A stretch of DNA of 64,000 nt from Clostridia bacterium (GTDB taxonomy: Bacteria; Bacillota; Clostridia; Oscillospirales; RGIG8002), in assembly GCA_017616855.1 (NCBI GenBank), contig JAFZXI010000115.1:1412-65411 (forward strand). The letters are read 5' to 3'. Position numbers and translations under genes: made by a program. Positions 22,173-64,000 of the stretch are shown here, piece after piece. The notes beneath the pieces were generated by a model. The model searched no databases, was not told where the DNA came from, and worked only from the letters and a program-made list of their open reading frames with translations. Position 1 is the stretch's first letter; each line of letters opens with the position of its first letter.

Positions 22173-22238
22173 TTTTACTTGAATAATTCGGGAAAGATGG
22201 TATTATATAATTATCTACTTCCACAAAAGGAGCCGGAA

Positions 22239-46912: not shown

Positions 46913-46946
46913 AAAAAGGAGACGTGAAAGCGTCTCCTTTTTCTTT
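46913..46946 (+). terminator. rho-independent terminator after tRNA-Arg
   Basis: AAAAAGGAGACG-TGAAAG-CGTCTCCTTTTTCTTT. Confidence 0.75.
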
Positions 46947-47430: not shown

Positions 47431-47432
47431 CA

Positions 47433-47591
47433 TGGATGAAGCAAGAGCGCGCGGAAAAGGCGTCGGGTTCGAAAGGATCCGCAGGATCACCGGCTATCTG
47501 GTCGGCGATCTGAAGCGCTTCAATAACGGGAAATACGCCGAACAGGCCGACAGAGTCAAGCATTCCGTAGGAGGCAGATATGGGATATGAT
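47433..47591 (+). CDS. phage-encoded stand-alone glycyl-radical module (52 aa, NrdD C-terminus-like)
   Basis: Own translation; below the ORF-track size cut-off. MDEARARGKGVGFERIRRITGYLVGDLKRFNNGKYAEQADRVKHSVGGRYGI. GAGAGG lies 8 nt upstream. 29 of 36 aligned residues are identical to the host minigene (43921..44079) by my count, with many synonymous differences. The 3' end overlaps the next ORF by 12 nt. Confidence 0.7.
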
Positions 47592-49055
47592 CCTTTGAGC
47601 GTCAAAGACGTTCACCAGAAATACGGCGGCAGCGGCTCCTTCGCCGACCGCGGTCAGACTTGGGTCGACCTCGGCCTCGGCGCCGCCGGCAGCTACATCG
47701 GAAGCGGAGATCAGAACAAAGCTCTCAGGTTGAAGATGGAGGAGGTCGGCGGGCTTACCCTTCCCGCAGCGACTCCCGCGGCAACGGAAACGGCGACTCC
47801 CGCCACGGCCGCCCCCTCTCCCGCTCCCGCGGCAACGGAAACGGCGACACCCGCCGCGGCCGCTCCGGTATATAACGATCCGGAGCTGGAGGCGGCGATC
47901 GCGAAGCTCCAGGGGACGGAATACAAACCTTCCGACGATGTGACGCAGCTCAAGCAGTCGGTCAACGACGCGATAAGCGAGTTCAAAAACTATCAATACG
48001 GCCTCGCTCAGGAGATCGAAGGGGCTCTGAAGAAGATCCTCGACCCGAAGACGTTCTCTTACGACCACGAAACGGACCCGAGCTACCACGCGCTCCGGGA
48101 TGAATACATCCGCAACGGGCGGATCGCCATGCTCGACACCGGCGCCGCGGCTGCCGCCGCGAACGGCGGGCGCGAGACGTCCTACGGACGCTCCGCCGCG
48201 CAGCAGGCGTATCAGGGATATATGAGCGAGCTCAATTCGAAGATACCCGAACTGGAAAACGCGGCGTATCAGCGCTACAGGGACGATCTGGACGACGCCT
48301 ATAAGCGCTATCAGCTCCTCGTTGAGGACAGGGAGCGCGAACGCGGCGAGAAAGTGGATGATCTGAAGCTCGCGCTCGAGCTTTACGAGAACGCCAGGGA
48401 CGACGAGCTGGAGGAATACGGTCTGACCCGCGACGAGCTGCTCGACACCATCAACGTCCTCGCGCAGCGCGAGAGCACCGGATACGAGCGCGGCAGAGAC
48501 GCCATAACCGACGAGCGATACGAGCGCGAATACGCCGACGAGAGAGCCGACACCGCCTATAACAAGCTCGCGACGCTGATCTCCTCCGCCGGCTACACTC
48601 CGACCGACGAAGATCTCGAAAAGGCGGGAATGAGCAAAGGGCAGGCCGACGCGCTGAAGGCGGCTTATGAGGTCGACGCGGCGAACGCGAAAAAGTCGTC
48701 TTCTTCCTCCGGATCCGGAACGAAGAAGAGCAGCAGCGGCTTCAAGAGTTCGACGGCGGACTCGGATCTCCGGAGTCTCAAGAAGAAGGGCGACACGAAG
48801 ACTGATGAGGGCTGCATGGCGATCGCTGAGGCGATGGCCGAATACTACCCCATCGATACCTACGGCGAGGACGTTATAGACTACTTCGCCAACACTTACG
48901 TCGGCGGTCACCCCATAGAATACTGGCTCAACCGCATCGACGAGCTGGAAGAGGAAAAGAATAACCCCGTCGCCACCGGCAAGACCTCCGGAATAAAGCC
49001 CGGACGTGCCGCGGGCGCCGGCGGGCTTACGGGCAACAAGGCAATGATAAATTAG
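47580..49055 (+). CDS. phage protein of unknown function (Pro/Thr/Ala linker plus long charged helical region)
   Basis: 491 aa with an internal duplicated linker (PAATPAATETATPATAAPSPAPAATETATPAAAAP). The E/R/D/Y-rich central region has no recognised catalytic motif. Confidence 0.7.
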   Translation: MGYDPLSVKDVHQKYGGSGSFADRGQTWVDLGLGAAGSYIGSGDQNKALRLKMEEVGGLTLPAATPAATETATPATAAPSPAPAATETATPAAAAPVYNDPELEAAIAKLQGTEYKPSDDVTQLKQSVNDAISEFKNYQYGLAQEIEGALKKILDPKTFSYDHETDPSYHALRDEYIRNGRIAMLDTGAAAAAANGGRETSYGRSAAQQAYQGYMSELNSKIPELENAAYQRYRDDLDDAYKRYQLLVEDRERERGEKVDDLKLALELYENARDDELEEYGLTRDELLDTINVLAQRESTGYERGRDAITDERYEREYADERADTAYNKLATLISSAGYTPTDEDLEKAGMSKGQADALKAAYEVDAANAKKSSSSSGSGTKKSSSGFKSSTADSDLRSLKKKGDTKTDEGCMAIAEAMAEYYPIDTYGEDVIDYFANTYVGGHPIEYWLNRIDELEEEKNNPVATGKTSGIKPGRAAGAGGLTGNKAMIN

Positions 49056-49067
49056 AAAGGGGCTTTT

Positions 49068-50396
49068 ATGGCACTGGTCGAATACCTTATCCGCCTGGAT
49101 CTGAAGAAGGAACACGAGCAGGGCGTGCAGCACGTCAAATACGGCGACACGAACTCGCGATACCTGCGCTTCCAGATCCACAGCGGAGGGAAAACCTACG
49201 ATATTTCGGATAAAAAGGCCGTTCTGCACTATAAGAAGTCGGACGGCACCGAAGGCAGCATTCGCTGCTTCCACCGCGCGGAGAAAGGCGTCTGCGAGTG
49301 CCTGGTCTCCTCTCAGATGACCGCCGTCGCCGGCGAGGTCAAGTGCGATCTGAAGATCTTTTCCGGCGACACGCTGCTCCACTCCCCGAAGTTTTATCTG
49401 CTGGTCGGAACCGACGCGCTCTCCGGAGACACCTCCGCGGACGATTTCGGCGACGAGAAGGCGGACAAGGTCGAGGACGCGGTCGAGGGCAACCTCGCCG
49501 CGCTCGACAGCGAAGGCAACCTGATCGACAGCGGCAAGGCCGTCGACGACTTCGCCGACGAAGAGCACACCCACACCTACGACGAGGTCATAGACTTCGC
49601 CTCCGGCGTCGTTTATTATACGCCCGCCGGCGGGGAGATCGTCTTCCCCATCGTCTATTGGGTAGACGATACGCCCCTCTCCACTCCCGACGAGGGCGAT
49701 TACTGGTATGCGCCGACGGCGATGAAGCTTTACAAGGCGGACAGCGTGCCGGGTTCCGGAATGACCTGGACCGACGTCACGAACACGAAGCTGAAAAACA
49801 ACAGTCTTTTCGTCCGTCATAACGGCAGAGTCTATTACTGCGTGGACGGCGAGCTGAGAGAGATAAAGACAACGCTCGTATCGCACACTCACGTGAAGAG
49901 CGATATAACGGATTTCGCTCACACGCACGCGAAATCGGACGTCACCGACTTCGCCCATACGCACACGGTAAGCGATATTACCGACTTCCCCGACACTCCC
50001 TCCGGCATCCCGGAGCCGACGAGCAACGACTTCGCGAAGAAGCTCTGCGTCACCAGTGACGGAAAATACCTTCTTTCGACCGGCGCCGTCTGCACGGTGA
50101 GCATTTCCTTCGCCTCCGGCGTCGGGAGCTCTCCGACCGCGATCTGGATAGAAAGTCCCTCGGGCATACGCTATTCCGACGAGGACGCTCCGGTCAGCTT
50201 TGACCTCATCGAGGGTGAAGTTGTGAAGTGCTACGTCAGCTATTCGCTTGACGATAACTATATCAAACTCAACGGAACGACCGTCGCCGGAGACGGCGGC
50301 AGCTCCGCCTATTACGAGCTGACCGTCGAGGACGACGCGAGCATCTACGTCACCGGAAGCGGCGGCAGTTTCGGGCTCATCAGTATAACCATGTAA
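49068..50396 (+). CDS. phage tail-fibre / baseplate protein (BppU-N-like N-terminus, HTH..SDITDFA repeats)
   Basis: The N-terminus ...VKYGDTNSRYLRFQIHSGGKTYDISDKKAVLHYKKSDGTEG...LVSSQMTAVAGEVKCDLKIF...SPKFYLLV resembles the BppU_N pattern (QGD.nsr.l.f.l..nG...dl........KpDG). Three tandem 12-aa His-rich repeats at nt 49884..49991. Confidence 0.55.
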   Translation: MALVEYLIRLDLKKEHEQGVQHVKYGDTNSRYLRFQIHSGGKTYDISDKKAVLHYKKSDGTEGSIRCFHRAEKGVCECLVSSQMTAVAGEVKCDLKIFSGDTLLHSPKFYLLVGTDALSGDTSADDFGDEKADKVEDAVEGNLAALDSEGNLIDSGKAVDDFADEEHTHTYDEVIDFASGVVYYTPAGGEIVFPIVYWVDDTPLSTPDEGDYWYAPTAMKLYKADSVPGSGMTWTDVTNTKLKNNSLFVRHNGRVYYCVDGELREIKTTLVSHTHVKSDITDFAHTHAKSDVTDFAHTHTVSDITDFPDTPSGIPEPTSNDFAKKLCVTSDGKYLLSTGAVCTVSISFASGVGSSPTAIWIESPSGIRYSDEDAPVSFDLIEGEVVKCYVSYSLDDNYIKLNGTTVAGDGGSSAYYELTVEDDASIYVTGSGGSFGLISITM

Positions 50397-50408
50397 CAGG
50401 AGGCAACT

Positions 50409-50636
50409 ATGGCAACGGAAAAACTCATACCCATCGTAACCGATATCACGGTCCCCGAGGGCGCAACGCTCACTTACAGGTTCGGCAACTACTGCGAGTT
50501 CGCCGGAGAGTCCTCGGCCACGAAATCGGATATCAAAGGCGCTTCGCTCAACTCTTCCTTCTGGGAGCAGGACACCGGCGACTTCTATCACCTCACCGCT
50601 TCCGGCTGGGAGAAGAACGGACCCGAGGAGGAGTAA
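50409..50636 (+). CDS. hypothetical phage protein
   Basis: 75 aa with AGGAGG upstream. No recognised family. Confidence 0.55.
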   Translation: MATEKLIPIVTDITVPEGATLTYRFGNYCEFAGESSATKSDIKGASLNSSFWEQDTGDFYHLTASGWEKNGPEEE

Positions 50637-50645
50637 CATCCCGAT

Positions 50646-51047
50646 ATGCACGATCCCTCGATGAAACAGCAGGCGAAAGCGCTTGTTGTCAACAGAGGCC
50701 TATCCGTCGCCGCGGCTGCCCGCGAACTGGGCCTGCCGCGGCGTACTATTGCGGACTGGTCGAAGGCCGACGGCTGGCTTGAGCGGCGCGTCGAGCTTCG
50801 CCGCGACGTTTTTAATACGGAGACCACCGAGATCGAAGAGGGTATCGGCGACAACGCGGACGTCAGAGCTACCGCGAAGCGCGTGCTTAAAGGGATAAAC
50901 GTCTGGCTCGGCGCGTCGAAGGTCGTCTTGCCGAAGGAGGCCTCCGCGCTCGCCTCCGCCCTGGTCTCGCTCGCCGCGCTCGCGCCTTCGGACGCGGAAA
51001 AGACGCTCTCGGGCGTTATTTTCATTCCGGAGGTGAACGATGAGTAA
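50646..51047 (+). CDS. terminase small subunit (HTH type)
   Basis: 133 aa. The N-terminal HTH (QQAKALVVNRGLSVAAAARELGLPRRTIADWSKADGW) is typical of gpP-like / Terminase_5 small subunits. The 3' end overlaps the terL start by 8 nt. Confidence 0.7.
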   Translation: MHDPSMKQQAKALVVNRGLSVAAAARELGLPRRTIADWSKADGWLERRVELRRDVFNTETTEIEEGIGDNADVRATAKRVLKGINVWLGASKVVLPKEASALASALVSLAALAPSDAEKTLSGVIFIPEVNDE

Positions 51048-52446
51048 CGTCGTCTGGCGCCCGCAGCCCCGACAGGAGGAGTTTATGCGGCGTCCGGAAT
51101 ACGAGGCGCTCTACGGCGGAGCGGCCGGCGGAGGAAAAAGCGAAGCCCTCGTCATAGAGGCGCTGCGGCAGGTCAATATCCCCCACTATAAGGGACTGAT
51201 CCTGCGCAAAAGCTATCCACAGCTTTCCGAACTGATCGACAAAAGTATCCTATATTACCCGCGCGCGTATCCGGGAGCGAAATACAACGCCTCGACGCAC
51301 ACCTGGACCTTCCCTTCCGGCGCGAGGATCATTTTCGGATCGATGAACCGGAAGGAAGACAAGATCAAATACCAGGGCAAGAGCTTCGACTACATCGCCT
51401 TCGACGAGCTGACGCATTTCACCTGGGAGGAATATTCCTATATGTTCTCCCGAAACAGATCTTCCGGCCCCGGGGTTCGATCCTACATAAGAGCAACGGC
51501 GAACCCGGGCGGCGTCGGACACGGCTGGGTGAAGGACCGCTTCATCATCCCCGCTCCCCCGATGACGACGATCGCGGACACAGTGAAGTATTCCACCCCT
51601 TCCGGGGAGACGGAGGAGGCGTCGCGGACGAGGGTCTTTGTGCCGGCGACGGTCTATGACAATCAGATCCTCTTAAAGAACGATCCGGAATACGTCGCCA
51701 CCCTTGCCCTGCTTCCTCCCGCGGAGAGGCAGGCGCTGCTTTACGGCGACTGGGACTCCTTCTCGGGTCAGGTCTTCAGCGAATGGCGCAACGATCCCGC
51801 CGGGTATCTGACGCGGAAGTTCTCTCACGTCATTGAGCCCTTCGAGTTCCCCTCCTGGTGGAGAGTGGTGCGCGGGTTCGACTACGGTTATTCGAAGCCG
51901 TTTTCGGTCGGGTGGTATGCGGTATCCCCCGACGACGTTATCTACCGCGTCGCGGAGCTCTACGGCGGAGACGCGGACGTCGGCGTGAAATGGACTCCGG
52001 ACCGTATCGCCGAGGAGATAGCCGAGATAGAAAAAACTCACCCGCTGCTGCGCGACGTCAAGGTCGTGCTCGGGCTGGCGGATCCGGCGATTTTTTCCGC
52101 GACGGTTTACGGCGAAAGCATAGCCGAGCTGCTCGCGCGCAAGGGTGTTTATTTTTCCAAGGGAGACAATACGCGCCTCGCCGGTAAGATGCAGCTGCAC
52201 AACCGCCTCGCCTTCGACGAAGAGGGCCGGGCGAAGTTTTACGTTTTCAACACCTGCCGCAACTTTATACGCACGATCCCCTCTCTGGTCTATTCGACGG
52301 TCAACGTCGAGGACGTAGACACGACACAGGAGGATCACGCTTACGACGAATGCCGCTACGTGCTGATGGCGCACCCGATGACGACGGTGCCGAGGGTCAA
52401 GAGGCGCTGGAGGGTCCCGGAGCTCGATATCGACGAGGAATACTGA
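51040..52446 (+). CDS. terminase large subunit
   Basis: 468 aa with Walker A YGGAAGGGKSEAL, Walker B FDYIAFDELTHF, a coupling motif TANPGG, and a C-terminal nuclease region with acidic residues (DYGYS..., ...QEDHAYDECRY). Confidence 0.9.
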   Translation: MSNVVWRPQPRQEEFMRRPEYEALYGGAAGGGKSEALVIEALRQVNIPHYKGLILRKSYPQLSELIDKSILYYPRAYPGAKYNASTHTWTFPSGARIIFGSMNRKEDKIKYQGKSFDYIAFDELTHFTWEEYSYMFSRNRSSGPGVRSYIRATANPGGVGHGWVKDRFIIPAPPMTTIADTVKYSTPSGETEEASRTRVFVPATVYDNQILLKNDPEYVATLALLPPAERQALLYGDWDSFSGQVFSEWRNDPAGYLTRKFSHVIEPFEFPSWWRVVRGFDYGYSKPFSVGWYAVSPDDVIYRVAELYGGDADVGVKWTPDRIAEEIAEIEKTHPLLRDVKVVLGLADPAIFSATVYGESIAELLARKGVYFSKGDNTRLAGKMQLHNRLAFDEEGRAKFYVFNTCRNFIRTIPSLVYSTVNVEDVDTTQEDHAYDECRYVLMAHPMTTVPRVKRRWRVPELDIDEEY

Positions 52447-52724
52447 TTTTCGGGCGGTTAGGCGAACCGTTCGGAGTTTCCGAACCGTTCACGTTTTCTC
52501 CGCTTCTTCCCCTGCATAAGCGGTCGCGATACAAATCAGAACGTGCGATTTCCCGAGATTTCGGGCAATTTCGCGGCAAAAACGCTGCTTCTGAGGCGAT
52601 AACAGAGGAGCGAACGTATATTTCATGCTTTGAAAAAAACTGAACGACCGCCTTTTTCGGTCCCGCGGCGGTTCCCTGCAAACGGGCCCACGCGCCCGCG
52701 CGATTTACTATTACGGAGGACATT

Positions 52725-55700
52725 ATGGGCAAATACGCAGATCTTTACGCGAAGTTCGGCCGCGATATCAACAGCGACGCGGAAAAGAATAAGGAGACAA
52801 CGCAGGAGAAGCCCGCGGCGAAGACTTCGCGCGGGAAGTATTCCGATCTTTACGCGAAGTTCGGCCGCGACCTCGGCGGCCGTCGCACGAAGGCAGCGCA
52901 GGAGGAAGCGCAGCAGAAGGTCGAGGAGAAGAACGACGCGCTGCGCAACGCCCAGTCGAATTACCGCAGGCAGTATCTCATCAACGAGGCGACCAAGCGC
53001 GAGAACGAGAAGGAAGCGGAGGCGGAGCAGCGCCGGAGCAGGCGCTTCGCCAACGTCGCCGCCGCGAGGGCATATACCGATACCGCCAGCAGCGAGCGTT
53101 CTTACGAGGACCGCGTGAAGGCCGCGGAGGTCGAGAGGATCCAGGCGGAGAACAGGATCAGAGCCAGAAGCTCCGACGGACAGGAAGCGCAGCGCGACGA
53201 CGAGGCGCGTTACAACTATATCGCCCGCAGGATCGATACGCAGGAGAAAGCGAAAAAGGTCGAGGAGGCGCCCGGCGCCGGAAAGCTCACTGCCGAGCAG
53301 CTGAAGGAAGAGAGTGCGATCGGCGGCGTCACCAAAGGCGACCTGGCGTGGTATAAGGAAGAAAAGGCGCGGAGAGACGAGGCAGCGGCGCAGAAGAAGG
53401 CGGCGGAGGAGTATTTCGAGTCGCTCAAAACCTATTACAACAACCTGACGCTCGACCTCGACGCGGCGAAGGCGGAATACGACCGCGTCGCCGGGATAAA
53501 GCGCTTGCTTGATAACGCCGGCAGCGAGCTGGAGAAGATGAAGACGGAAAACCCGCAGCTCTGGAATGAGATCGACGGGATAGCGCAGTTTCTCTACGGC
53601 GGCCCGAAAGCAAAGCAATACGGCGAGGGCAAGATGGTGGACGACGGTCCCGACGCGGATTACTTCGGCGACAACGATGATATCGCGAGGCAGCACGCCT
53701 ACACCCGCTATATTCTCAGGCAATACGGCTACAAGGACTACGACGCGCTCGCGAAGGAGGTCGCCGAGAAGGGCAACACCTGGGCGACGGCGCGGGATAT
53801 TCAGGAGAGCTACAAGCTTGTGACGGACGCGAAGGCGGATCCTGAGTTCGAGGCGTGGGCGGCGAAAGGGGCCGCGGATAAGGATAACTCGGTAATGTGG
53901 GCGCGTGGTTTGACGGACGAAGAAGCCGAAAGCACCAAATCCACAATGGGCGTCGGCACCTCCGGACTTCGCGAAGACGTCATAAAGAGGCGTATGCTCA
54001 CGCAGGACGAGCTCGACATATACAATTATTACTACGGCAAGGGCGACAAGGACGCGGCTTACAAATACTATAATTCACTCGACGATCTGCTCGCCCAAAG
54101 GTCCGCCGTGTATAACGCGAAGGTGTTCGGAGACAGCTTCTTCGGCAAGGCAAATATGGCAATATACACCGGGTTCGAGCAGTTTGCAAACGGCGTATAT
54201 CGCAAGATCGGGCCGAAGCAGGAATACTACTACCCGACCGTCAGCCAGTATACATCCGCTATACTCACGCAGGATATGGGCGGGGTCGAGAAGTTCTGGT
54301 ATGATCTCGGCGTCAACGTCTCGAATATGGCGCCTTCCATTATCGCCGGTAAGCTCGCGAGCTATATCAATCCCGTCTTCGGCGAGCTCGTCGGCGCGGC
54401 GACGATGGGGCTTTCCGCTTCCGGCAACGCATACGCCGAAGCGATCAACTCCGGCATGACGCCCAACCAGGCGAGCGCGTATTCCAATCTGATAGGTCTT
54501 TCCGAGACTACGCTGCAGGCGGCTATCGGCGGTATTCCCTACGTCGGCGGCGCAGTGACCGGCGGAGTTTTCACGAAGGCCGGAACGAAGGTGCTGCGCT
54601 TCGCCGGCGGGCTCAACTCCGGCATGGCGAAGGTCGCGACGAAGGCCCTCGGCTACGGGCTGAAATACGTCGGCAAATCCTTCGGAGAGTTCGTCGAAGA
54701 GGGTTTGCAGGAGGTGCTGGAGCCGTATTTCGCGGCGTTCGTCACGGGCGAGGCGCCGGACGACGTCGACTGGGACGCGGTATTCTACAGCGCCGGTATG
54801 GGCTTCATCACTTCCCTCCTGCTGAATGCCGGCGACAGCGCGGTCAACGTGAAGAACGCGCGCAGCAAGGCGAAGGATGTTATAAATCAAGGCGGCGCCG
54901 AGCTCGCCGTCAGGCTCGGGCTGCAGTTTGACGAGAAGAGCGACGTCTACCGCATCGCGAAGGAGATACAGCGCGACGGATACGACACCGGCAACATCGC
55001 CGAGCTGCTGATGGCGCTCGAGACGGAAACGCAGAACGATCCCGACTTCGCGCAGCGGTTCACGGACCGCGACTTCGGCGAGCTTAATATCAAGCCGAAG
55101 AACGAGACGAAGACCATAGATAAGAACGCGAAGAAGATCGGCAAATACGTCGAAAAGCAGGACGCGACGGAAGGCGCCGCTTACGAGGCGGCTACGCAGA
55201 CGCCGATAAGCGAGAGCGTCGCCGGGCAGGACGTCCGGGGCGAAGAGGTCTCTCCCGTCAGAACGGCGGAGGAGTTCGTTTCGCGCTATAACGGAGAGGT
55301 TGCGGAAAACGCAACAACTGAAGCGCGTCCGGACACGAACGCGGTCGATGAGGGCGCCGCGCGCACCTCCGGGACGAACGTGAATACGGCGGCGGAGACA
55401 AACGCGCCGACGGTCGCGAACGTTCCCGCGGAGACGGTCCCTTCCGATAACGAAAACGTTATCACGGTCAAGCGGGCGAAGGTTTCGGACGCTTCGAAGG
55501 CGGTCAGCCGCATAACGAAGAACGGCAAAGCGATCGAGGGCGGCGGACGGTATTACGTTTACGATACCGCCGGCACTACCGCGATACGCTACGATGACGC
55601 GCCGGCGAACGTGAGCTTCACGAGCGAAGACGGGCTCGCCGGAAGGATAGACCGGGTGCTCAACACCGAGGGAGACGATACGGGCGTCGTTTTCGATACC

Positions 55701-58700
55701 GGGAAGATCTCCGATCTGAAGACGGCGATAAACACGGTCAAGCAGATAAAGAGCGCTTACGGCGACAAGGGCGCGACGGTCGTTTATAATTTCGGCGACG
55801 GCGTGGTCGTGGACGCCGCGAAGGTTCTCGACGTCGCGGAGGCGCTTCCGGGCGCGACGGTGCAGCGCGTGCCGGTCGGCAACGGGTATTACGGGCTGAA
55901 GTTCGTCGTGGAAAACGGCGTCGGGCTCGTTATGCCGATAAATGCGAAGGACGTCAGCGCCGCGGAGGACTCTGTCTTCCTGATCCGCGGAAGGAACACG
56001 CCGGCTTCGGCATCGGTCGTGCTGGGGAACAATTCCTGGTCTCCCGCGGAGGGCGAGGCGGCTATACCCGCAAAGAGCAGCGATCGAGTATTCAACGACG
56101 ACCTGACGTTCAATCTTGCGGATGATACCGTAAATGATACGATAAATGATACTATAAACGAAAACGGCGCCGAGACCGACGCCGACGTTATAGATCTGAC
56201 CGAGGACAGCGAGCTGACCGAAGAGCTGAGGGGCAAGAGCGCCAAAGAAATACGAAGAAGTCTGTTTGAGTACATAAAGCGCATCTTCGGCAATAAAGAA
56301 ATCACGCTAAGCGACGGCAGAAAAGCCATCGTGGACAAAGGTGACGCAAGGAAGCTTTCGGACAGGAGCTCGCCCGAATGGGTTGCGAAGATCGCGAAGG
56401 TGCAGGAGCTTATAAACAAGGCGCAGCTTACGGACGAGGACCCGAACCCAGAGCATAAAAAGTTCACACATTTCTGGTACTACAAAGCTTCGGTAAAAAC
56501 GGAACGAGGCGTGATCAGTGTCTATCTCAATATAGGAAAAGCTCGCACCGACACAAACAACCACCTTTACGATATTACAGAAAGTATAAGAGACACCGCC
56601 CGGCCTTACGCCGGCGGGAGCGTCAACCCGACTTACTCCCTGAAGAACGGTATCTCTACAAGTGATATTGTAACCGAAAACGGCGGAAAAGTCAATACCG
56701 AAAGCGAAAAAACTTCAAAATCGCAGCAGGAAGACGCGTCAGATCGCGGAAAAGTGCAAAAATCTGCCGAAAAATCGTCTGAAAAAGTGCAAAATATACC
56801 CGAACGGGGCGAAAACGGGAGCGAAACGACGGGTCGAGGGGCGGCTGCGAACGAAAATACGGAAGGCAGCGTGAAAAAGCGCGGCGGGAGGAACGTTTTC
56901 CGCAGCGAAAGCGGGAAATATTCCGAAATAGACGGCATAAACGACGACGGCGACGTCGTGCTGGAGGGCGGAGAGACGCTCGACGTCGATTCTCTCGATC
57001 CGGAAGCGCGCAGCGCGGTCGATACCGTCCTCGCGGACTTCTATTCCGGACGGATAAGCGAAGCGCAGGCTATGGATATGCTCAGGAACGGCACCCTCAC
57101 CTACACAAAGGGAGAGAACGCCTGGATCGCGGAGGAGCTGAACGACGGGAATACCGCTAAACTGATGAGCCCGCAGCAGATAGAGGCGATGGCGGAAAGG
57201 CTTTTCGGCATCTATATCAATTACGGGCGCGTCCAGGGGCGCAGAACGATGGGCTTCATGCGCCAGGGAGAACGCGGGCTCCGCACACGCACAGTCGGCA
57301 TGCTTCCGACCGTCTCGCACGAGCTGACGCACATCCTGGACCTGACGGACGGCCGCGAATTGAGCAAGCTAACGGGAATACAAGAGGTGATAAAAGCGGC
57401 GCCGCAGGCCTGGCTTGCGGGTTATCCGAAAAGCGCCCGCGCATCTGAGGCCGTCGCGTGGTTCGGCGAGCAGTATTTCCGATCGAGAAAAACCGCGCAG
57501 CAGATCTCGCCGGAGTTTTTCCGCAACTTCGAGGCCTCCTTCAGTCCGACCGAACTGAAGAAGCTGCACGAGCTCGGCGACGCTGTCAATAAGTTTATGG
57601 TGCGCGAGACGGATGCGGAGGGCAACGATATAACAATGCTCAAGCAGTCCCGCGCGCAGCTCGCGACGCAGGCGGTGAAGCCGAAGGATATGCGGGCGCT
57701 CGGCGACAAGGCTCGCGAATTGGCGCTGCGCTTCGAAACGAAGTATTTTAACTCCAACGCACCCTTCGAGAAGAGCTTCGGCGACAAGGCGGCGGTGCTG
57801 TATAACGCGGACATCATTTCCGGCGCCGCCAGGGCGACGTATATGATAAACGGCACCGACGCGCTGATCGGGAAAAAGCACTCCGGAGGATTCGATACGT
57901 CGGACGGGCGCCACATCGAAGATCTGAGCACGATCCTCTCCCCTCTTGAAAAGTCCGGAAAGGAAGCTTACGACGATTTCAACACCTATCTCGTGCTCCG
58001 GAGAGGCGGGTATAAAGTCATTGAAGGCAAACGCGTCTTTGCTTCCGATATGGCGAATAATCCTTCAGAGATCTCACGCAATATCGATCTGCTCGAAAAA
58101 GCGCATCCGGAGTTCCGGGAGATCGCCGACAAGGCGATAGAGTTCCACCGCGAGCTCGTCAAGAAGACCTGCGTCGATACCGGACTGATGAGCGAAGAGA
58201 CTTTCGATCAGATGACGAAGGAAGATCCGTTCTATGTTCCCTTCAGGCGCGACGTCGACGGCACGCACGGCTCCGGAGTAAATACGACGCTGCAGTCCGC
58301 GAAACAGTTCAAAAGGATGCGCGGCAGCGGCCGTGATATATACAATCCGGTCGAGTCGCTCTTCCAGGACGCCTATGAAACGGTCGTTTCTTCTCTCCGG
58401 GCGCAATACGGCGACTATATCCTCGACAGTGTGGACGCGGATCCCGCCGGCATGGAATGGCTCGCGACGAAGGTCAACGCAAAGGTCAACCTTGACGTCA
58501 CGGATCTTTCCGCGCAGCGCGACTCCTTCCGCGGGCAGCTCGTCGCTTCCGGACTCGATCAGAAGGCAGTTGACGCCATAATGAGCATATACGACGGCAC
58601 CGTCGGAGATGAGGTCAAGAGCTTCCGTGTCCCGTATTACCAGGGCGAAGACTTTTTCCTTCGCCGTCGGTGGCACAAGGACGCGAACGGAAAGGAAAGC

Positions 58701-60875
58701 TCCACCCTCACCTGCTACCAGTTCAACAGCGCCTTCGGAAAAGCCGCGCTGCAGAACACGATAGACAACTCCGTGAACTTTAACAGTAAAGCGGTCAACG
58801 CGCTGATGAAGCTATCGCACATCCGGAAGATCTTCCTGACCGGCTCCTCTCCCCTCTTCACCGTGCGAAACCTCATCCGCGACGCGCAGGACGCCTACGC
58901 TTATTCAAGAATAAAGAACCCTCTGGAGTTCACGAAAAGGTATATCGGCGCGCTGAAATCGGTCCTGACGGCCGATCAGGCGTATATGGACTATAAGAAG
59001 GCCGGCGGCGGCAACTCGACGCGTATTTCCTCAGACGTCAGGACGATCGCGGACGTCGTGCCCGCGGTCTATAAAGCGCATACGAAAAAGAGCGTGCAGC
59101 TGATGCAAGGTATGGTTAGGTTCGCCCCGAGCATGATCGAGCGCATAAACGAAGCCGTCGAGCAGGTGCCGCGCATGCTGGAGTTCAAACATTCGCTCGA
59201 TCACGGCGGCAGTATGAACGAGGCACTTTACAGGGCCGCGAACATCACGGTAAACTTCGGACAGCACGGAGCGGCTAAAAGCTTCATATCTCTCATGGGA
59301 GGCATTTTCCCCTTCTTCAACGCCGGTATGCAGGGACGTTACAGAATGTATCAGGCGCTGAAGACCGACACGGTGAGTTTTTTGGCGAAGAAAACGCTGA
59401 CCGCGCTCGTGCGCAACGGCATCCTCTTCGGGCTTGTTAAGGCATTCGGCGCGGAGGATGAATACAAAAAACTCTCAAACTACATCAAGAACAACTACTA
59501 TGTCATCCCGATCGGCAAGGGCAGCTTCATCCGGCTGCCGAAGGATCGCGAAGGCGGCATACTCGACTCGCTGATGGAAAACGCCGTTTCCTCGCTGATG
59601 TATGGAACGGACGGCGAGCAGTGGTATGACTACGCGACCTATCTGATAGACCAGGTCGGCGGCCCGGGAACGATCGAATCGTTTCTCGGATACCTCGTCG
59701 AGACGCTGCACGACGGTGGCCAGATAACAGACGTCGCCGCTGGCATAATGAGCGATACCGTCGCTTCGCCGATTTTCGACCTTATGAGAAACAAGGATTA
59801 TCGCGGCGTGAAGATTGAGACGACGAGCGATCAGAAGCTTCCTCAGTCAGAAAGATACGACGAAAACACTTCTGCGCTCGCCAAGTTCCTCGGAAGCCTC
59901 GGCGTCCTCTCCCCGAAGCAGGTGCAGCACCTCGTCGAATCTCTCGGCTTCATACCTGCCGCGGTGATCTCGCTGCCGGAAAACTTCGCCGAAGGCGGAT
60001 TATTCGGTCCCGCAAAAAGCTTCGCCAACTCCTTCGCGACCGCTTTTACGTCGTCCTCCGCCTACTCAAACGACGCGATAAACGATTTTTACGACGGGTT
60101 CGAGAAGCTCGAAATGAAGAAAAACGCAGACGGCGGCGGCGAGATCCGCGCGGAATACGCCCGCGCCTCCGGCGTTAAAACGATAATGAGCGAGCTTTAT
60201 AAAATGAGGCGCGAAACGGAGAGCGAGGAGGAGCGCGAGGCGATCACGAGGATCATACGCGATAGCGCCTACGACTACCTCCACGCAGATACAATGGACG
60301 ACCACGTCGAAAAAGAGCTGATCGCGCTCTACGATCGAATCGGCGATAAGGACTACGCCGGGATATTCTATTCGGCGCCGAAGGCGAGCTGGTCGACCGG
60401 CGGCGTTACATACTCCCTCGACCTTGCGACGTATCTCGAATATGCAGAAGAGTATCGAGGGGCCGTCAGAAGCGCTTATTCCATCGTTTTCGCGAATGAA
60501 TACTCAAACGATACCGAGCTTGCCGAAGATCTCGAAGACGCGAAGGAGCTTACGGTAAAAGAGCTGAAGCGTAAGTATATGCTGAGAGCGAAGCGTTCGA
60601 GCGACGCGGTCACTACGGAACGCATCAGATCGGAGCTCGAATACGGCGATTCCGGCGCGGACGTCTCTATCACGCTCAAAGAATACGTCACTCAGGAACG
60701 CGGCGCCGGCAGAAAGGACGAAGGCATCCGCCAGTCGCTCTCGAATATATTCCGCGCCGATTACAAGGAATATGCTGCGGACGGCGACAAAAAGATGACC
60801 GACTACATCGAGCAGCTGCTTATAGGCCTCGGGATCGGGTTTACATCCGAAAAGATCAGAAAATGGGCGGACTGA
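52725..60875 (+). CDS. giant (2716 aa) phage protein, polyvalent / virion-associated-like, with HExxH zincin motif
   Basis: GGAGG lies 7 nt upstream. Duplicated N-terminal motif GKY(A/S)DLYAKFGRD (nt 52728 and 52833). About 300 aa of charged coiled coil. A Gly/Ala-rich hydrophobic region similar to tape-measure or ejection proteins (nt ~54324-54850). TVSHELTHILD...EAVAWFGEQYF is HExxH plus a downstream Glu, at nt 57318-57332. About 1100 aa of C-terminal region without recognised motifs. Occupies the terL-to-scaffold slot. Confidence 0.85.
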   Translation: MGKYADLYAKFGRDINSDAEKNKETTQEKPAAKTSRGKYSDLYAKFGRDLGGRRTKAAQEEAQQKVEEKNDALRNAQSNYRRQYLINEATKRENEKEAEAEQRRSRRFANVAAARAYTDTASSERSYEDRVKAAEVERIQAENRIRARSSDGQEAQRDDEARYNYIARRIDTQEKAKKVEEAPGAGKLTAEQLKEESAIGGVTKGDLAWYKEEKARRDEAAAQKKAAEEYFESLKTYYNNLTLDLDAAKAEYDRVAGIKRLLDNAGSELEKMKTENPQLWNEIDGIAQFLYGGPKAKQYGEGKMVDDGPDADYFGDNDDIARQHAYTRYILRQYGYKDYDALAKEVAEKGNTWATARDIQESYKLVTDAKADPEFEAWAAKGAADKDNSVMWARGLTDEEAESTKSTMGVGTSGLREDVIKRRMLTQDELDIYNYYYGKGDKDAAYKYYNSLDDLLAQRSAVYNAKVFGDSFFGKANMAIYTGFEQFANGVYRKIGPKQEYYYPTVSQYTSAILTQDMGGVEKFWYDLGVNVSNMAPSIIAGKLASYINPVFGELVGAATMGLSASGNAYAEAINSGMTPNQASAYSNLIGLSETTLQAAIGGIPYVGGAVTGGVFTKAGTKVLRFAGGLNSGMAKVATKALGYGLKYVGKSFGEFVEEGLQEVLEPYFAAFVTGEAPDDVDWDAVFYSAGMGFITSLLLNAGDSAVNVKNARSKAKDVINQGGAELAVRLGLQFDEKSDVYRIAKEIQRDGYDTGNIAELLMALETETQNDPDFAQRFTDRDFGELNIKPKNETKTIDKNAKKIGKYVEKQDATEGAAYEAATQTPISESVAGQDVRGEEVSPVRTAEEFVSRYNGEVAENATTEARPDTNAVDEGAARTSGTNVNTAAETNAPTVANVPAETVPSDNENVITVKRAKVSDASKAVSRITKNGKAIEGGGRYYVYDTAGTTAIRYDDAPANVSFTSEDGLAGRIDRVLNTEGDDTGVVFDTGKISDLKTAINTVKQIKSAYGDKGATVVYNFGDGVVVDAAKVLDVAEALPGATVQRVPVGNGYYGLKFVVENGVGLVMPINAKDVSAAEDSVFLIRGRNTPASASVVLGNNSWSPAEGEAAIPAKSSDRVFNDDLTFNLADDTVNDTINDTINENGAETDADVIDLTEDSELTEELRGKSAKEIRRSLFEYIKRIFGNKEITLSDGRKAIVDKGDARKLSDRSSPEWVAKIAKVQELINKAQLTDEDPNPEHKKFTHFWYYKASVKTERGVISVYLNIGKARTDTNNHLYDITESIRDTARPYAGGSVNPTYSLKNGISTSDIVTENGGKVNTESEKTSKSQQEDASDRGKVQKSAEKSSEKVQNIPERGENGSETTGRGAAANENTEGSVKKRGGRNVFRSESGKYSEIDGINDDGDVVLEGGETLDVDSLDPEARSAVDTVLADFYSGRISEAQAMDMLRNGTLTYTKGENAWIAEELNDGNTAKLMSPQQIEAMAERLFGIYINYGRVQGRRTMGFMRQGERGLRTRTVGMLPTVSHELTHILDLTDGRELSKLTGIQEVIKAAPQAWLAGYPKSARASEAVAWFGEQYFRSRKTAQQISPEFFRNFEASFSPTELKKLHELGDAVNKFMVRETDAEGNDITMLKQSRAQLATQAVKPKDMRALGDKARELALRFETKYFNSNAPFEKSFGDKAAVLYNADIISGAARATYMINGTDALIGKKHSGGFDTSDGRHIEDLSTILSPLEKSGKEAYDDFNTYLVLRRGGYKVIEGKRVFASDMANNPSEISRNIDLLEKAHPEFREIADKAIEFHRELVKKTCVDTGLMSEETFDQMTKEDPFYVPFRRDVDGTHGSGVNTTLQSAKQFKRMRGSGRDIYNPVESLFQDAYETVVSSLRAQYGDYILDSVDADPAGMEWLATKVNAKVNLDVTDLSAQRDSFRGQLVASGLDQKAVDAIMSIYDGTVGDEVKSFRVPYYQGEDFFLRRRWHKDANGKESSTLTCYQFNSAFGKAALQNTIDNSVNFNSKAVNALMKLSHIRKIFLTGSSPLFTVRNLIRDAQDAYAYSRIKNPLEFTKRYIGALKSVLTADQAYMDYKKAGGGNSTRISSDVRTIADVVPAVYKAHTKKSVQLMQGMVRFAPSMIERINEAVEQVPRMLEFKHSLDHGGSMNEALYRAANITVNFGQHGAAKSFISLMGGIFPFFNAGMQGRYRMYQALKTDTVSFLAKKTLTALVRNGILFGLVKAFGAEDEYKKLSNYIKNNYYVIPIGKGSFIRLPKDREGGILDSLMENAVSSLMYGTDGEQWYDYATYLIDQVGGPGTIESFLGYLVETLHDGGQITDVAAGIMSDTVASPIFDLMRNKDYRGVKIETTSDQKLPQSERYDENTSALAKFLGSLGVLSPKQVQHLVESLGFIPAAVISLPENFAEGGLFGPAKSFANSFATAFTSSSAYSNDAINDFYDGFEKLEMKKNADGGGEIRAEYARASGVKTIMSELYKMRRETESEEEREAITRIIRDSAYDYLHADTMDDHVEKELIALYDRIGDKDYAGIFYSAPKASWSTGGVTYSLDLATYLEYAEEYRGAVRSAYSIVFANEYSNDTELAEDLEDAKELTVKELKRKYMLRAKRSSDAVTTERIRSELEYGDSGADVSITLKEYVTQERGAGRKDEGIRQSLSNIFRADYKEYAADGDKKMTDYIEQLLIGLGIGFTSEKIRKWAD

Positions 60876-60889
60876 AAACAGAACGCAGA

Positions 60890-60917
60890 AAAAAGCACCC
60901 GCGAGGGTGTTTTTTTC
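60890..60917 (+). terminator. terminator after the giant ORF
   Basis: AAAAAAGCACCC-GCGA-GGGTGTTTTTTT. Confidence 0.65.
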
Positions 60918-61018
60918 ATTATAGGGGAGAAATGGAAGGCGACGGCGGTTTATAATCTTGACGACACGCCGGAAAGACGGCAGATAAGACGCGCGGGAGA
61001 GACCGCAGGGAGTTATTT

Positions 61019-61903
61019 ATGCTCGATTTTGATTATTTCGACCTTCAGCGCTTCTCGGACGGTGAGGTCGAAGGCGACGCCGGCCAAACGGGCGAGGCCG
61101 CCGCAGAACCTGCAGGCGAGCCGACAGCACAGACCGTTCCGGATCTCGATGCGGAGTTCGACGAGCTCGTCAAGGGAAAGTATAAGGACGCTTATAAGTC
61201 CCGCGCCGAAGCTTTCGTCGGAAAGAGACTCCGCAAAGCGAACGCCGAGCTGGAGCAGCTGCGCACGGAAACGGCGCAGTATAAAAAGTATGCTCAGCTC
61301 GTAAGAGAACGCTATCCGGACGCCGCGGACGACGCCGCGGCTTTTGAGGCATTCGACAACGACGCCCGTCTGCTCGCGGACGAGGCGGACAGAAACGGTT
61401 ATCCCGTCGATCTATGGAAGGAAAAACGCTCCATAGAGCGCGAAAAACGCGAGATCGCGGAGGAAAAGCGCGCAAAAAGCGACGCCGACGCGCGTTCCCG
61501 CAAAATGGACGACTGGATCGAACAGAGCGAGCGCCTCAAACAGAAATACCCGGGATTTGACCTCAGAGCGGAGCTTTCGGACCCCGAAACGCAGGCCGAC
61601 TTCTTCGATCTAATCGAGAAAAAGGGCCTGACGATCGAGCAGGCATACCGCCAGGTGCGCTTTGACAAGCTCATAGAGGACGCGAGGATAAACGCCGCCC
61701 TCGAAAGTGAGAAGCAGACCGTCGAGAGGATAAAATCCGGGACTGAAAGACCGAGAGAGAATGGCTCCGCGGCGACGCCCGCCGGAAAGGCGATCGTTGA
61801 CGTCACACACGCGGACAAGGAAACGCTGGCGAAGATAGACCGCGCCCTCCGCAGACACGGAAGGTTCGATCCGATGAACCCGCCGGCGGATTTCGACTAT
61901 TGA
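61019..61903 (+). CDS. phage scaffolding protein
   Basis: 294 aa, highly charged and helical, immediately upstream of the capsid gene. N-terminus MLDFDYFDLQRFSDGE is of the ..LQ.FA type seen on Firmicute phage scaffold proteins. Confidence 0.75.
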   Translation: MLDFDYFDLQRFSDGEVEGDAGQTGEAAAEPAGEPTAQTVPDLDAEFDELVKGKYKDAYKSRAEAFVGKRLRKANAELEQLRTETAQYKKYAQLVRERYPDAADDAAAFEAFDNDARLLADEADRNGYPVDLWKEKRSIEREKREIAEEKRAKSDADARSRKMDDWIEQSERLKQKYPGFDLRAELSDPETQADFFDLIEKKGLTIEQAYRQVRFDKLIEDARINAALESEKQTVERIKSGTERPRENGSAATPAGKAIVDVTHADKETLAKIDRALRRHGRFDPMNPPADFDY

Positions 61904-61932
61904 TATCAAATCTTCAGAAAGGAAAAAACACC

Positions 61933-63186
61933 ATGAAAGCACTTTTTAAGCGTCTTTTCGATCTCCAGAGATTCGCTACGACCGTTTCGAGCGACATCCC
62001 TCAGGATTTCAAGACTTTTTACGACAACAAGCTGATCGAGTTCGCCAAGCCGGCGCTCGTTCACGAACAGTTCGCCCAGGAATCCCCCATTCCGAAGGGT
62101 GAAGGCAAAACCATCAAGTGGCGCACCTACAGAAAGCTCGCGAAGGCGACCACCGCTCTGACTGAAGGCGTTACCCCCAGCGGTTCCAAGCTCTCGATGG
62201 CCGACGTCACGGCGAACATCGCCCAGTACGGCGACTTCGTCACCATCTCCGACGTGATCGAGATGGCCGCCATCGACAACAACGTCGCCAGAGCTTCCGA
62301 GGTCTGCGGTCAGCAGATGGGCGAAACGCTCGACACCATCTGCCGCGAGGTTATGAACGGCGGCACCGCGAAGATCCTCGCCCCCTCCGTCTCCGGCGGC
62401 AGCGTGACCCCCGTCACCCTCAGAACGAACATCACCAAGAACTGCAAGCTCACCGCCGACGTCGTCAGACAGGCCGCCCGCCTCCTGAAGGCGAACGACG
62501 CCAAGAAGATCGACGGCGACTACGTCGCCATCATCCACCCCGACGTCGCTTACGACTTGATGAAGGACAGCGAATGGAAGAGCGCCAACGAATACGCCGG
62601 TTCGAAGAATATCTTCAACGGCGAGATCGGCAAGCTCGCGGGCGTCCGCTTCATCGAGACGACCGAGGCGAAGAAGTGGGCCCCTCCGGAGATCACCCAG
62701 GGTTACACCCGTCTGACCGTCAAAGCGAACGCCTCCTCCAGCGCGACCTCCATCACCGTCAACGAGGTCCTCGACGCCGAGAGCTCCAAGAGCTACGCGG
62801 TCTATATCGACGGCGTCGCGAACACCGTCACGGCGATCGCGAACAATACCACCTACTCCACCCTCACCATTTCCGCGCTTTCCGCGAATGTCAGCGCCGG
62901 CGCCGTTATCTGCGGCAAGGCCACCTCTGCGGCGAATGAAGGCGGTAAAGACGGCTCCACCGTCTACTCCACCCTCGTGCTCGGCAAGGACGCTTACGGC
63001 AAGGCGGAGATCGCGGGCGGCAACGCCGGCATCATCGTCAAGCAGCTCGGCCACGGCGACGACCCCCTGAACCAGAGGGCCACCATCGGCTGGAAGGCCA
63101 ACGCCGCTTACGCGATACTCGACGATACCCGTATCGTGCGTATCGAAAGCGCCTCCTCCTTCTCGGGCGAGACCGAAGCCAACTGA
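61933..63186 (+). CDS. major capsid protein (HK97 fold; resembles the N4-gp56 family)
   Basis: ATG at 61933 (track ORF starts at 61900). ...FYDNKLIEFAKPALVHEQFAQESPIPKGEGKTIKWRTYRKLAKATTALTEGVTPSGSKLSMADVTANIAQYGDFVTISDVIEMAAIDN... matches the pattern recalled for N4-gp56-type capsid proteins. Position after the scaffold gene. Confidence 0.8.
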   Translation: MKALFKRLFDLQRFATTVSSDIPQDFKTFYDNKLIEFAKPALVHEQFAQESPIPKGEGKTIKWRTYRKLAKATTALTEGVTPSGSKLSMADVTANIAQYGDFVTISDVIEMAAIDNNVARASEVCGQQMGETLDTICREVMNGGTAKILAPSVSGGSVTPVTLRTNITKNCKLTADVVRQAARLLKANDAKKIDGDYVAIIHPDVAYDLMKDSEWKSANEYAGSKNIFNGEIGKLAGVRFIETTEAKKWAPPEITQGYTRLTVKANASSSATSITVNEVLDAESSKSYAVYIDGVANTVTAIANNTTYSTLTISALSANVSAGAVICGKATSAANEGGKDGSTVYSTLVLGKDAYGKAEIAGGNAGIIVKQLGHGDDPLNQRATIGWKANAAYAILDDTRIVRIESASSFSGETEAN

Positions 63187-63193
63187 CGCACAT

Positions 63194-63223
63194 AAAGCGG
63201 GGGCGGAAGCCCGCCCCCGCTTT
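63194..63223 (+). terminator. terminator after the capsid gene
   Basis: AAAGCGGGGGCGG-AAGC-CCGCCCCCGCTTT, a perfect 10+ bp GC stem. Only a weak T-tract follows (GGCTTTTTC). Confidence 0.6.
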
Positions 63224-63480
63224 GGCTTTTTCGCGGAAGTTATCTCTCCCTCAGTCTCGACGCCGTGAGACGGGCGAATAATATTCGCCCCTACGATCCG
63301 CGCTCGGCGCGGGGACAACCCCTCAGTCAGCTTCGCTGACAGCGTCTCGCCTGCGGGCTCGGTCGGGCCGCGGCTCTGACAGCCCACCGGGCTGTCATTC
63401 ACTACCGCGGCCTCCGCTTCGCTACCCTTGCACAGGGGAGCCACCTCATCCGGCGCTTCGCGCCGCCTTCCCGTCGAGGA
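63224..63480. repeat. host-type modular intergenic repeats inside the prophage
   Basis: GTTATCTCTCCCTCAGTCTCG (63239-) is the reverse complement of 10024-10044. GGGCGAATA-A-TATTCGCCCCTACGA (63272-63296) is the same module as 38196-38220. Further GC hairpins follow (CCGCGC-TCG-GCGCGG, GTCAGC-TTCG-CTGAC, GACAGCCC-ACCG-GGCTGTC). Confidence 0.7.
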
Positions 63481-63503
63481 GGAAGGCATGAAAGGAAAAT
63501 GAT

Positions 63504-63692
63504 ATGAAAGAAAGATTGAAATCGTGGGTTTTCTGGAGCTCGCTCGCCGCGCAGGTCGTATCGATCCTGGTCGCGTGCGGCGTGATCTCCCCCGAGGCGT
63601 CCGAACCCGTCAGGGCCGCCGTCGTTTCGGTGCTGCAGATATTCGTGTGCTTCGGGGTGCTCAACAACCCCACTGACCGCGAAAACTTTTAA
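63504..63692 (+). CDS. holin-like small membrane protein
   Basis: 62 aa: MKERLKSWVFWSSLAAQVVSILVACGVI...VVSVLQIFVCFGVLNNPTDRENF. Two TM segments and a ...GV..NPTD tail resemble SPP1/phiLC3-type holins (recalled). Confidence 0.55.
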   Translation: MKERLKSWVFWSSLAAQVVSILVACGVISPEASEPVRAAVVSVLQIFVCFGVLNNPTDRENF

Positions 63693-63754
63693 CGAGAACA
63701 TAATCCGGAGGGGTTTTCCCTTCGTTTTATAATACTTCAAAGGAGTAATTATCC

Positions 63755-64000
63755 ATGCCTAAAAATGAAACAGTCAAGAAGGAAGCGCCCGAGGCGGAGG
63801 TTTCCGTCAACGAGCGCAGGTTCGTTCCCATCTTCATCCCCGCGGAAAGCGATGAGGACGAGCTGCACAACAAATACTTCTCCGTAAACGGAAAGACCTA
63901 CGGCGTGCCCGTCGGCATCGAGGTTTCCGTTCCCGAGGAAGTCGCCGCCGCTTACGAGGAATCGAAGGCGGGAAAGAAAAACGCGCGCCAGGCGATACTC
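63755..64000 (+). CDS. hypothetical phage protein, N-terminal part (runs off the window)
   Basis: Own translation from ATG 63755 (AAAGGAG upstream): MPKNETVKKEAPEAEVSVNERRFVPIFIPAESDEDELHNKYFSVNGKTYGVPVGIEVSVPEEVAAAYEESKAGKKNARQAIL... Open to the window end. Confidence 0.6.
   Translation, partial: MPKNETVKKEAPEAEVSVNERRFVPIFIPAESDEDELHNKYFSVNGKTYGVPVGIEVSVPEEVAAAYEESKAGKKNARQAIL

Follow-up and report, generated by a model that had tools for sequence, protein, structure and literature searches.

A giant phage-type polyvalent protein encoded beside the large terminase gene of a Clostridia prophage

A phage-type polyvalent protein in a lineage-specific gene order

The DNA analyzed here, a 64,000-nucleotide stretch of a Clostridia bacterium contig (JAFZXI010000115.1; hereafter the window), ends within a prophage in which one giant gene separates the large terminase gene (terL) from the genes of a scaffold-like protein and the major capsid protein (MCP). 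We conclude that its product, a protein of 2716 amino acids, is a member of the phage-type polyvalent proteins that stands in a gene order specific to its lineage. We further propose, with a probability of about 0.7, that this polyvalent protein comes from a temperate phage, probably with a short tail, whose Clostridia host bears dockerins, and that it is packaged in the virion and ejected. The assignment is carried by the LPD38 and LPD3 domains and by giant homologs, and the ratio of nonsynonymous to synonymous substitution rates (dN/dS) shows the gene to be genuine. The open reading frame (ORF; 52725-60875, on the plus strand like all features below unless stated) starts with ATG 8 nucleotides downstream of GGAGG, has no internal stop codon and is the sole credible gene between terL and the scaffold/MCP pair, in agreement with the gene calls on related contigs. 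A first-pass annotation, made from the sequence without database searches, had likewise placed one gene alone in this interval and described five features in it; the 8.15-kb ORF is indeed intact, and all five features were found in the sequence. An identical copy of the protein is encoded on a second European Nucleotide Archive contig from another assembly (L005), and four giant relatives from different samples are full-length (2601-2787 amino acids), co-linear and 63-83% identical.

We searched for homologs in a collection of 5.8 billion proteins. All homologs of the giant were 1.2-4.7 thousand amino acids long, and the domains observed among them were SNF2, ART-PolyVal, MuF_C, PARP, Zeta toxin, PBECR, RelA/SpoT, lysozyme and other LPDs; a separate search with the C-terminal module alone (see below) added only four further proteins. 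Two Pfam models matched the giant itself above their cut-offs: LPD38 (PF18857, E=1.2e-22) at residues 2244-2407 (59454-59945) and, in a scan by segments, LPD3 (PF18798, E=1.9e-6, 28.5 bits against a gathering cut-off of 27 bits) at residues 1172-1273 (56238-56543). LPD38 is specific to the phage-type class of polyvalent proteins, whose genes are already known to lie among virion genes (Iyer, Burroughs, Anand, de Souza and Aravind, 2017, J Bacteriol; PMC5512222). The likeness to polyvalent proteins noticed in the first-pass annotation is thus borne out by these two domains and by giant homologs with polyvalent enzyme domains. A PDB sequence search with the whole protein returned nothing, and neither did NCBIfam.

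Two terminal modules and a variable center

The C-terminal module (C-module, residues 1461-2660, 57105-60704) consists of a likely zincin and a large helical body that includes LPD38, and was delimited from alignments, a structure model and profiles. Using profiles built from our own alignments, we found it always near the C terminus of homologs, and an N-terminal module (N-module) always near the N terminus, starting at residues 24-191. Both modules were present in 11 proteins, the N-module only in 25 and the C-module only in 15; as judged from this distribution of profile matches, the two modules combine independently. An N-module-only giant of 3569 residues (P0010) and a C-module-only giant of 3056 residues (P0014) share the same longest contig size, 42,603 bp, and one phage may carry the two modules on these two separate proteins.

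The AlphaFold model of residues 1461-2660, built from a 25-sequence alignment, was mostly helical, with a mean predicted local distance difference test (pLDDT) score of 70 and a predicted template-modelling score (pTM) of 0.58. Foldseek found nothing similar in the PDB, where all matches had E>0.9. In BFVD, with a threshold of E<=1e-3, the same model aligned with the C-terminal portions of 67 giants from phages; the strongest match reached E=3e-29, with a template-modelling score of about 0.5 across >1,000 columns. Annotations among these matches were LPD38, RelA/SpoT, LT_GEWL and methylase, and their sources included E. coli phage PTXU04, Ralstonia phage Alix and Cellulophaga phages. Therefore, the Pfam LPD38 model (189 positions) represents a small piece of a conserved unit of about 1,100 residues.

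At the start of the C-module, a probable gluzincin (metallopeptidase, MPTase-like) sub-domain at residues 1478-1640 (57156-57644) was assigned from invariant residues, profile matches and predicted topology. The zincin motif first noticed by eye is present as a single HExxH at residue 1532 (HELTHILD; HELTH at residues 1532-1536, codons 57318-57332) with a downstream Glu 1575 (SEAVAWFGEQY), both invariant in homologs. Across 11 diverse homologs, H1532, E1533, H1536 and E1575 were invariant and D1539 was near-invariant; an Asp three residues after HExxH is the signature of a widespread phage-type MPTase clade (PMC5512222). In the AlphaFold model (pLDDT 68-90 here), the elements follow the order of a zincin core: one helix, three strands, and then the helices that carry HExxH and the downstream Glu. 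Individual homologs gave only weak M9, M12, M3 and M90 matches in this region. The HExxH region is likely a zincin and a candidate peptidase.

The core of the N-module (residues 340-760, 53742-55004) is all-helical, lacks a Pfam model and was delimited by homolog mapping, model and profiles. In an exhaustive phmmer search, the representative clusters with this core numbered 1,214 (E<=1e-3) or 843 (E<=1e-10); the clusters mostly hold proteins of more than 2,000 amino acids in which the module is N-proximal, usually inside the first ~750 residues. Its most conserved part is a Gly/Ala-rich block at residues ~527-617 (54303-54575; NMAPSI...GNAY.EA.N.G...GGI..GG) with invariant G577 and E594, and E655 and E659 just downstream are also invariant. 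The AlphaFold model of residues 101-1160 had a pLDDT of 50 overall and of 70-90 for residues ~230-600, which are all-helical; Foldseek gave no PDB match for it, with nothing below E=0.9.

Upstream of this core, the protein begins with a duplicated peptide, GKYADLYAKFGRD at residues 2-14 (52728-52766) and GKYSDLYAKFGRD at residues 37-49 (52833-52871). As initially described, the copies are encoded by repeats of ~39 nucleotides, which share an identical core of 26 nucleotides. Because the peptides stay a matched pair in four of four relatives while their sequence drifts, this pattern suggests a paired binding signal. The scaffold-like protein carries a similar motif, GKYKDAYK, which is invariant while that of the giant drifts; since no co-variation between the two was observed, capsid targeting by the N-terminal peptide stays speculative. 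The peptides are followed by a charged region rich in Glu, Lys, Arg and Ala (residues 50-339, 52872-53741), defined by composition and by low-confidence AlphaFold helices from residue 101. Of the coiled coil of about 300 residues proposed in the first-pass annotation, the composition stands (0.41-0.53 Glu/Lys/Arg/Ala over residues 1-300), and helices are predicted with low confidence for residues 101-300.

Between the two modules lies a variable and poorly predicted central region (residues 761-1460, 55005-57104), which holds a swappable cassette at residues ~1151-1317. The central globular segments had been described as of unknown type; they are present, and one of them, with HFWYYKASV, is covered exactly by LPD3. 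The cassette that carries LPD3 is absent from the closest relatives (P0002-P0004), and a 36%-identical copy occurs in a giant that is otherwise unrelated (P0039).

Proposed packaging and ejection

Packaging and ejection are inferred from homology to one virion protein and from genomic context. Positions 200-822 of the C-module profile matched residues 1905-2608 of vb_24B_48 of phage phi24B (180 bits, E=4e-57, hmmsearch). This protein, gp47, is abundant in purified virions by mass spectrometry and invisible in the cryo-electron microscopy map, and it has been proposed as an encapsidated ejection protein (preprint 10.64898/2026.04.10.717836). In every relative locus examined, the giant gene lies in late structural operons; neither a plus-strand terminator nor a sigma-70-like promoter was found flanking it in the window. 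The phage group looks short-tailed from its gene content: its portal is of the P22/SU10 type, neighboring genes match PHROG 511 ('internal virion protein'), and genes for a tape measure, tube or sheath were not found in related loci; the contig of the relative L001 is 37 kb.

On this basis, the giant protein would be produced alongside the proteins of the head and enter the procapsid during assembly, taking up a place inside it. The terminal modules, perhaps with the duplicated N-terminal peptide, would act as a loading and ejection chassis, and the protein would leave with the DNA through the portal and tail channel at infection. Because the phage is probably short-tailed, ejected proteins would be needed to bridge the envelope, and the Gly/Ala-rich helical N-module could help to form or extend a conduit across it. 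The zincin may act on the polyprotein itself, as a processing enzyme, or cleave targets in the wall or the host, and the central cassette would be an exchangeable payload.

Several observations weigh against this proposal. The homology behind packaging spans ~620 profile positions, and neither the N-module nor the zincin sub-domain was detected by profile in phi24B gp47. In the coliphage N4 virion RNA polymerase (vRNAP, gp50; 3500 amino acids), the C-module profile scored 1.5 bits and the N-module profile was negative. The Pfam MPTase-PolyVal model did not match the giant; the best PDB matches of the zincin sub-domain profile were all zincins aligned on the active-site helix, at marginal E-values (MtfA, 0.0045; snake-venom metalloproteinases, 0.02-0.07; anthrax lethal factor, 0.07-0.7). 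The hydrophobic Gly/Ala-rich stretch noted at first reading exists and is conserved, but its 19-residue Kyte-Doolittle maximum of 1.2-1.3 is under the level of classical transmembrane helices, which were rejected for it on this ground. A channel-forming role is speculative since no solved structure resembles either module. Finally, a separate portal gene is seen only in L001 and in more distant relatives, because the lineage of the window could not be followed past 64000: a scan of genome contigs with the MCP gave no relative extending further, a metagenome scan with the last gene of L005 gave only fragments of 1.5-4.3 kb, and IMG/VR searched with the scaffold-like protein gave one close match of 4.3 kb.

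The strongest competitor to packaging and ejection is a protein expressed late and left outside the virion, for example as a superinfection-exclusion or anti-defence factor that works within the producing cell, or as a captured defensive polyvalent protein. In its favor, hosts are known to capture polyvalent proteins (PMC5512222), and the virion evidence concerns a homolog, phi24B gp47. We consider such a role improbable: the gene is embedded between terL and the scaffold and MCP genes, and no plus-strand terminator was found before or after it; all relatives examined have it within structural operons; and its C-module shares homology with a virion-detected protein.

It is very unlikely that the giant is the tape measure of a long-tailed phage to which enzymatic domains were added. 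The helical Gly/Ala-rich N-module would suit one, and in L018 the giant gene lies directly upstream of a BppU_N receptor-binding gene, as tape-measure genes precede baseplate genes. The giant had no Pfam or PHROG match to tape measures, and genes for a tail tube, chaperone, sheath, Dit or Tal are absent from related loci; in addition, the position of the giant gene varies among them. The P22/SU10-type portal is typical of podoviruses, and the homolog phi24B gp47 comes from a short-tailed phage. Tape measures scale at about 0.15 nm per residue, and proteins of 2,700-4,600 residues would give tails of 400-700 nm.

Extending the packaging and ejection model, we can imagine that short-tailed phages of Gram-positive anaerobes generally load and eject proteins on a chassis, undefined until now, that the terminal modules form. 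In this tentative scheme, against which we would place the odds, the N-module would supply the conduit and the zincin and LPD38 C-module the procapsid anchor, with effectors swapped between them; the place of the gene by terL would possibly couple incorporation to the start of head assembly, and the N-terminal peptide pair would serve as a capsid-targeting signal. The present analysis gives the anatomy of one type of giant 'hypothetical' gene that is common in gut and rumen prophages, setting a conserved chassis apart from an exchangeable payload, and homology ties it to the one LPD38 giant shown in virions. Both the N-module and the greater part of the C-module are widespread, large regions without a Pfam model, which makes them good structural targets for the study of protein delivery by podoviruses of Gram-positive bacteria.

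Position of the giant gene and the separate portal gene

The prophage part of the window (46820-64000) shows no gene for a portal, MuF or a protease, as had been remarked in the first-pass annotation, which raised the possibility that a portal domain is fused into the giant. The giant indeed fills the slot after terL where L006, L008 and L018 (related loci are numbered with L) have their portal, and a portal fusion, or a portal and MuF fusion acting as portal vertex protein, is a tempting reading. It found no support in sequence or fold. Neither the whole protein nor nine segments of it matched a portal in Pfam or PHROG; segments gave no Phage_Mu_F match at E<=1, MuF_C (PF18819) being present in some homologs only. 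BLASTP against the portal of the lineage (L001) gave a best E of 1.3, and no portal fold was among the listed PDB and BFVD matches of the models of residues 101-1160 and 1461-2660. Of the domain types first suggested for such segments, LPD38 and LPD3 were recovered; portal, MuF and MPTase-PolyVal were not.

Gene orders in relatives speak against the fusion as well. In L001, the order is the same as in the window (BppU_N, terS, terL, giant, 294-residue scaffold-like protein, MCP), with identities of 84% for terL, 78% for the 294-residue protein, 76% for the MCP and 63% for the giant. L001 nevertheless has a separate portal gene of 633 codons (20450-22351; P22_portal E=3e-32, SU10_portal E=8e-8), and a Prp peptidase gene comes before it. 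The portal gene starts 7.9 kb downstream of the giant stop codon and ~5 kb downstream of the MCP gene; the equivalent position here is ~68.7 kb, beyond the window end. Separate P22_portal genes also accompany the giant genes of L014, ordered MCP ... giant, 96-residue protein, terL, portal and Prp, and of L018, ordered terL, portal (1256-3274), Prp, scaffold, MCP ... giant, BppU_N and amidase. With L001, L014 and L018 each carrying both genes, we regard a fused portal as highly improbable, and this reading can be set aside.

In the more distant, giant-less relatives L006 and L008, whose MCPs are about 45% identical, an orthologous portal gene (3047-5074 in L006, 6650-8605 in L008) directly follows terL, and the L008 portal is 40% identical to that of L001. 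The giant gene lies just upstream of the lysis genes in L015 and at the prophage end in L019, and the order of Prp and portal genes is inverted in the lineage of the window. From these gene orders (L001, L006, L008, L014, L015, L018 and L019), we therefore conclude that the giant gene is an accessory late gene of variable position, and that a rearrangement in this lineage put it in the portal slot, with the portal downstream. The location first called unusual is real insofar as the giant occupies the portal slot in this lineage; it reflects a local rearrangement, and the position differs among relatives.

Integrity, selection and mosaicism of the giant gene

We analyzed selection along the gene by the Nei-Gojobori method against two relatives. 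In windows of 150 or 300 codons, dN/dS was 0.12-0.46 in every window. The reading that the ORF was put together wrongly in assembly, or joins several genes through sequencing errors, for which only its extreme length and its mosaic similarity to relatives could be cited, has practically no chance of being correct, given the identical ORF in another assembly, the four intact co-linear relatives, dN/dS below 0.5 throughout and an N-module found in more than 1,200 representative clusters of mostly >2,000-residue proteins. Together, the dN/dS values and the four full-length relatives exclude the chimera or hidden frameshift that had been named as a possible flaw.

The synonymous rate, dS, is mosaic: it was 0.10-0.25 at residues 1-300 and 756-1055, and 0.47-1.16 elsewhere. 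The two low-dS stretches are nearly identical to the giant gene of L003 (10001-17866). This mosaic and the absence of the LPD3 cassette from P0002-P0004 point to recent recombination and cassette exchange inside the giant gene.

Prophage boundary and neighboring genes

Homology to the phage-form contigs L003 and L004 starts at position 46820, in the 3' end of a tRNA-Arg(ccg) gene (46755-46831), and marks the left junction of the prophage. In L003, the counterpart of this junction is the last 84 nucleotides of a serine recombinase gene, beside a LexA-like repressor gene. Because the homology begins at 46820, the prophage runs from there to beyond 64000, and the recombinase gene and right attachment site (attR) should be at the far end.

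A 491-residue protein rich in Ala/Pro and coiled coils (47580-49055) is encoded just downstream of the small phage ORF described in the next section, as it is in L001, L003 and L004, and is followed by a BppU_N receptor-binding-like protein (49068-50396). As both genes lie upstream of terS, the integrated order puts tail-type genes ahead of those for packaging. The packaging genes encode a small terminase-like protein with a helix-turn-helix domain (50646-51047; HTH_23, Terminase_5) and the large terminase (51040-52446; Terminase_6N, phrog_979, E=1e-62). Beyond the giant gene lie those of the 294-residue scaffold-like protein (61019-61903; phrog_13908) and of the MCP (61933-63186; phrog_1357, E=1e-77). 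After the MCP gene, a 62-residue ORF (63504-63692) matched Phage_holin_1 at E=1.9e-4, at the Pfam cut-off, which is odd amid head genes.

The MCP (MKALFKRLFDLQRF followed by ATT, 61933-61980) and the scaffold-like protein (MLDFDYFDLQRF followed by SDG, 61019-61060) share an N-terminal motif, FDLQRF, followed directly by A in the MCP and S in the scaffold-like protein. It is conserved in relatives (L001, L004, L014) as FNLQLF or VDLQLF followed by AE. The motif resembles the ribosomal L27-type cleavage site of Prp protease, as used by some Firmicutes phages. A Peptidase_Prp gene adjoins the portal gene in L001, L014 and L018, which fits the Prp-like motif of the two head proteins; the giant protein has no such site (LQxF[ASG]).

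On the host side, two dockerin type I proteins (36929-37978 and 40701-43328, both minus strand) point to a cellulosome-bearing Clostridia host. A dockerin/EF-hand-like segment was also observed in the 740-residue 'internal virion protein' homolog of L001 (17928-20150).

A split nrdD gene and phage-borne glycyl-radical tails

Left of the prophage junction, the host gene for anaerobic ribonucleotide reductase, nrdD, is split. Its body (46524 to 44119, minus strand; 801 codons) covers residues 4-708 of 743 in PDB 8p23 and positions 1-531 of 562 in Pfam NRDD, and ends after 24 unrelated residues, without the glycyl-radical tail. The tail is encoded by a 52-residue ORF (44079 to 43921, minus strand; RITGYL, NRDD positions 533-562), which lies 39 nucleotides past the body in the same frame, has its own AGGAGGG ribosome-binding site and is followed by a hairpin. 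A disruption of nrdD by the prophage was rejected, as the host has this separate tail ORF and the attachment junction lies in the tRNA-Arg gene.

The prophage carries a 52-residue homolog of the tail (47432-47590; 8p23 residues 707-741, E=1.4e-5), and L001, L003 and L004 have conserved it. The 120 top database matches were all stand-alone tails, 47-79 residues long, many on contigs of 34-42 kb. One is beside the integrase gene of an unrelated 36-kb phage, and another comes from a host in which a LAGLIDADG element breaks up nrdD. By analogy with GrcA/YfiD, which serves pyruvate formate-lyase, the prophage may thereby supply a 'spare part' radical subunit. A limited literature search found no description of a split nrdD or of a phage-borne tail, and this observation may be more novel than the giant-protein finding.

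Comparison with known systems

The ejection proteins T7 gp14-16 and P22 gp7, gp16 and gp20 are head-internal, encoded among structural genes, and bridge the envelope once ejected. The giant gene of L018 lies between putative tail or internal-virion genes and the receptor-binding protein gene, a setting like that of gp14-16 in T7. Unlike these proteins, to which no sequence or fold similarity was found, the giant is one polypeptide, several times their size, and its cassettes can be exchanged.

The vRNAP of N4 combines an N-terminal helical injection region of ~1,000 residues, a middle cargo and a C-terminal HExxH-MPTase region of ~1,400 residues that is needed for encapsidation (PMC5512222). 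The giant resembles it in this three-part logic, in architecture only, and differs in having no RNA polymerase domain; homology to vRNAP was rejected on the 1.5-bit and negative profile scores.

A close parallel is gp47 (2807 amino acids) of the Shiga toxin (Stx) phage phi24B and 933W-like phages: it is also giant, carries LPD38, is encoded in a late operon and shares a homologous C-terminal region of ~700 residues, and the phi24B portal is a gene separate from it. Unlike the giant, gp47 has LPD5, LPD1 and MuF-C domains, has its gene at the very end of the genome, away from terL, and serves a phage of a Gram-negative host. Its HExxH motifs, at residues 1297 and 1564, are unmatched by the zincin part of the C-module profile.

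With the phage-type polyvalent proteins of Iyer et al. (2017), the giant shares its size and multi-domain build, a phage of the portal-terminase kind, LPD38, LPD3, a likely zincin with an Asp three residues after HExxH, a gene placed among virion genes, and mosaic cassettes. It differs from typical members in being enzyme-poor, with no ART, SNF2/methylase, RNase, lysozyme or ParB domain found. Much of it consists of two large modules without a Pfam model, LPD38 covering only 164 residues of the ~1,100 in the C-module, and its gene occupies the portal slot of its own lineage. By itself, the giant leaves what is known of polyvalent proteins unchanged; what it adds is incremental, namely the delimitation of two terminal modules, their independent assortment and the relocation of the portal gene in this lineage.

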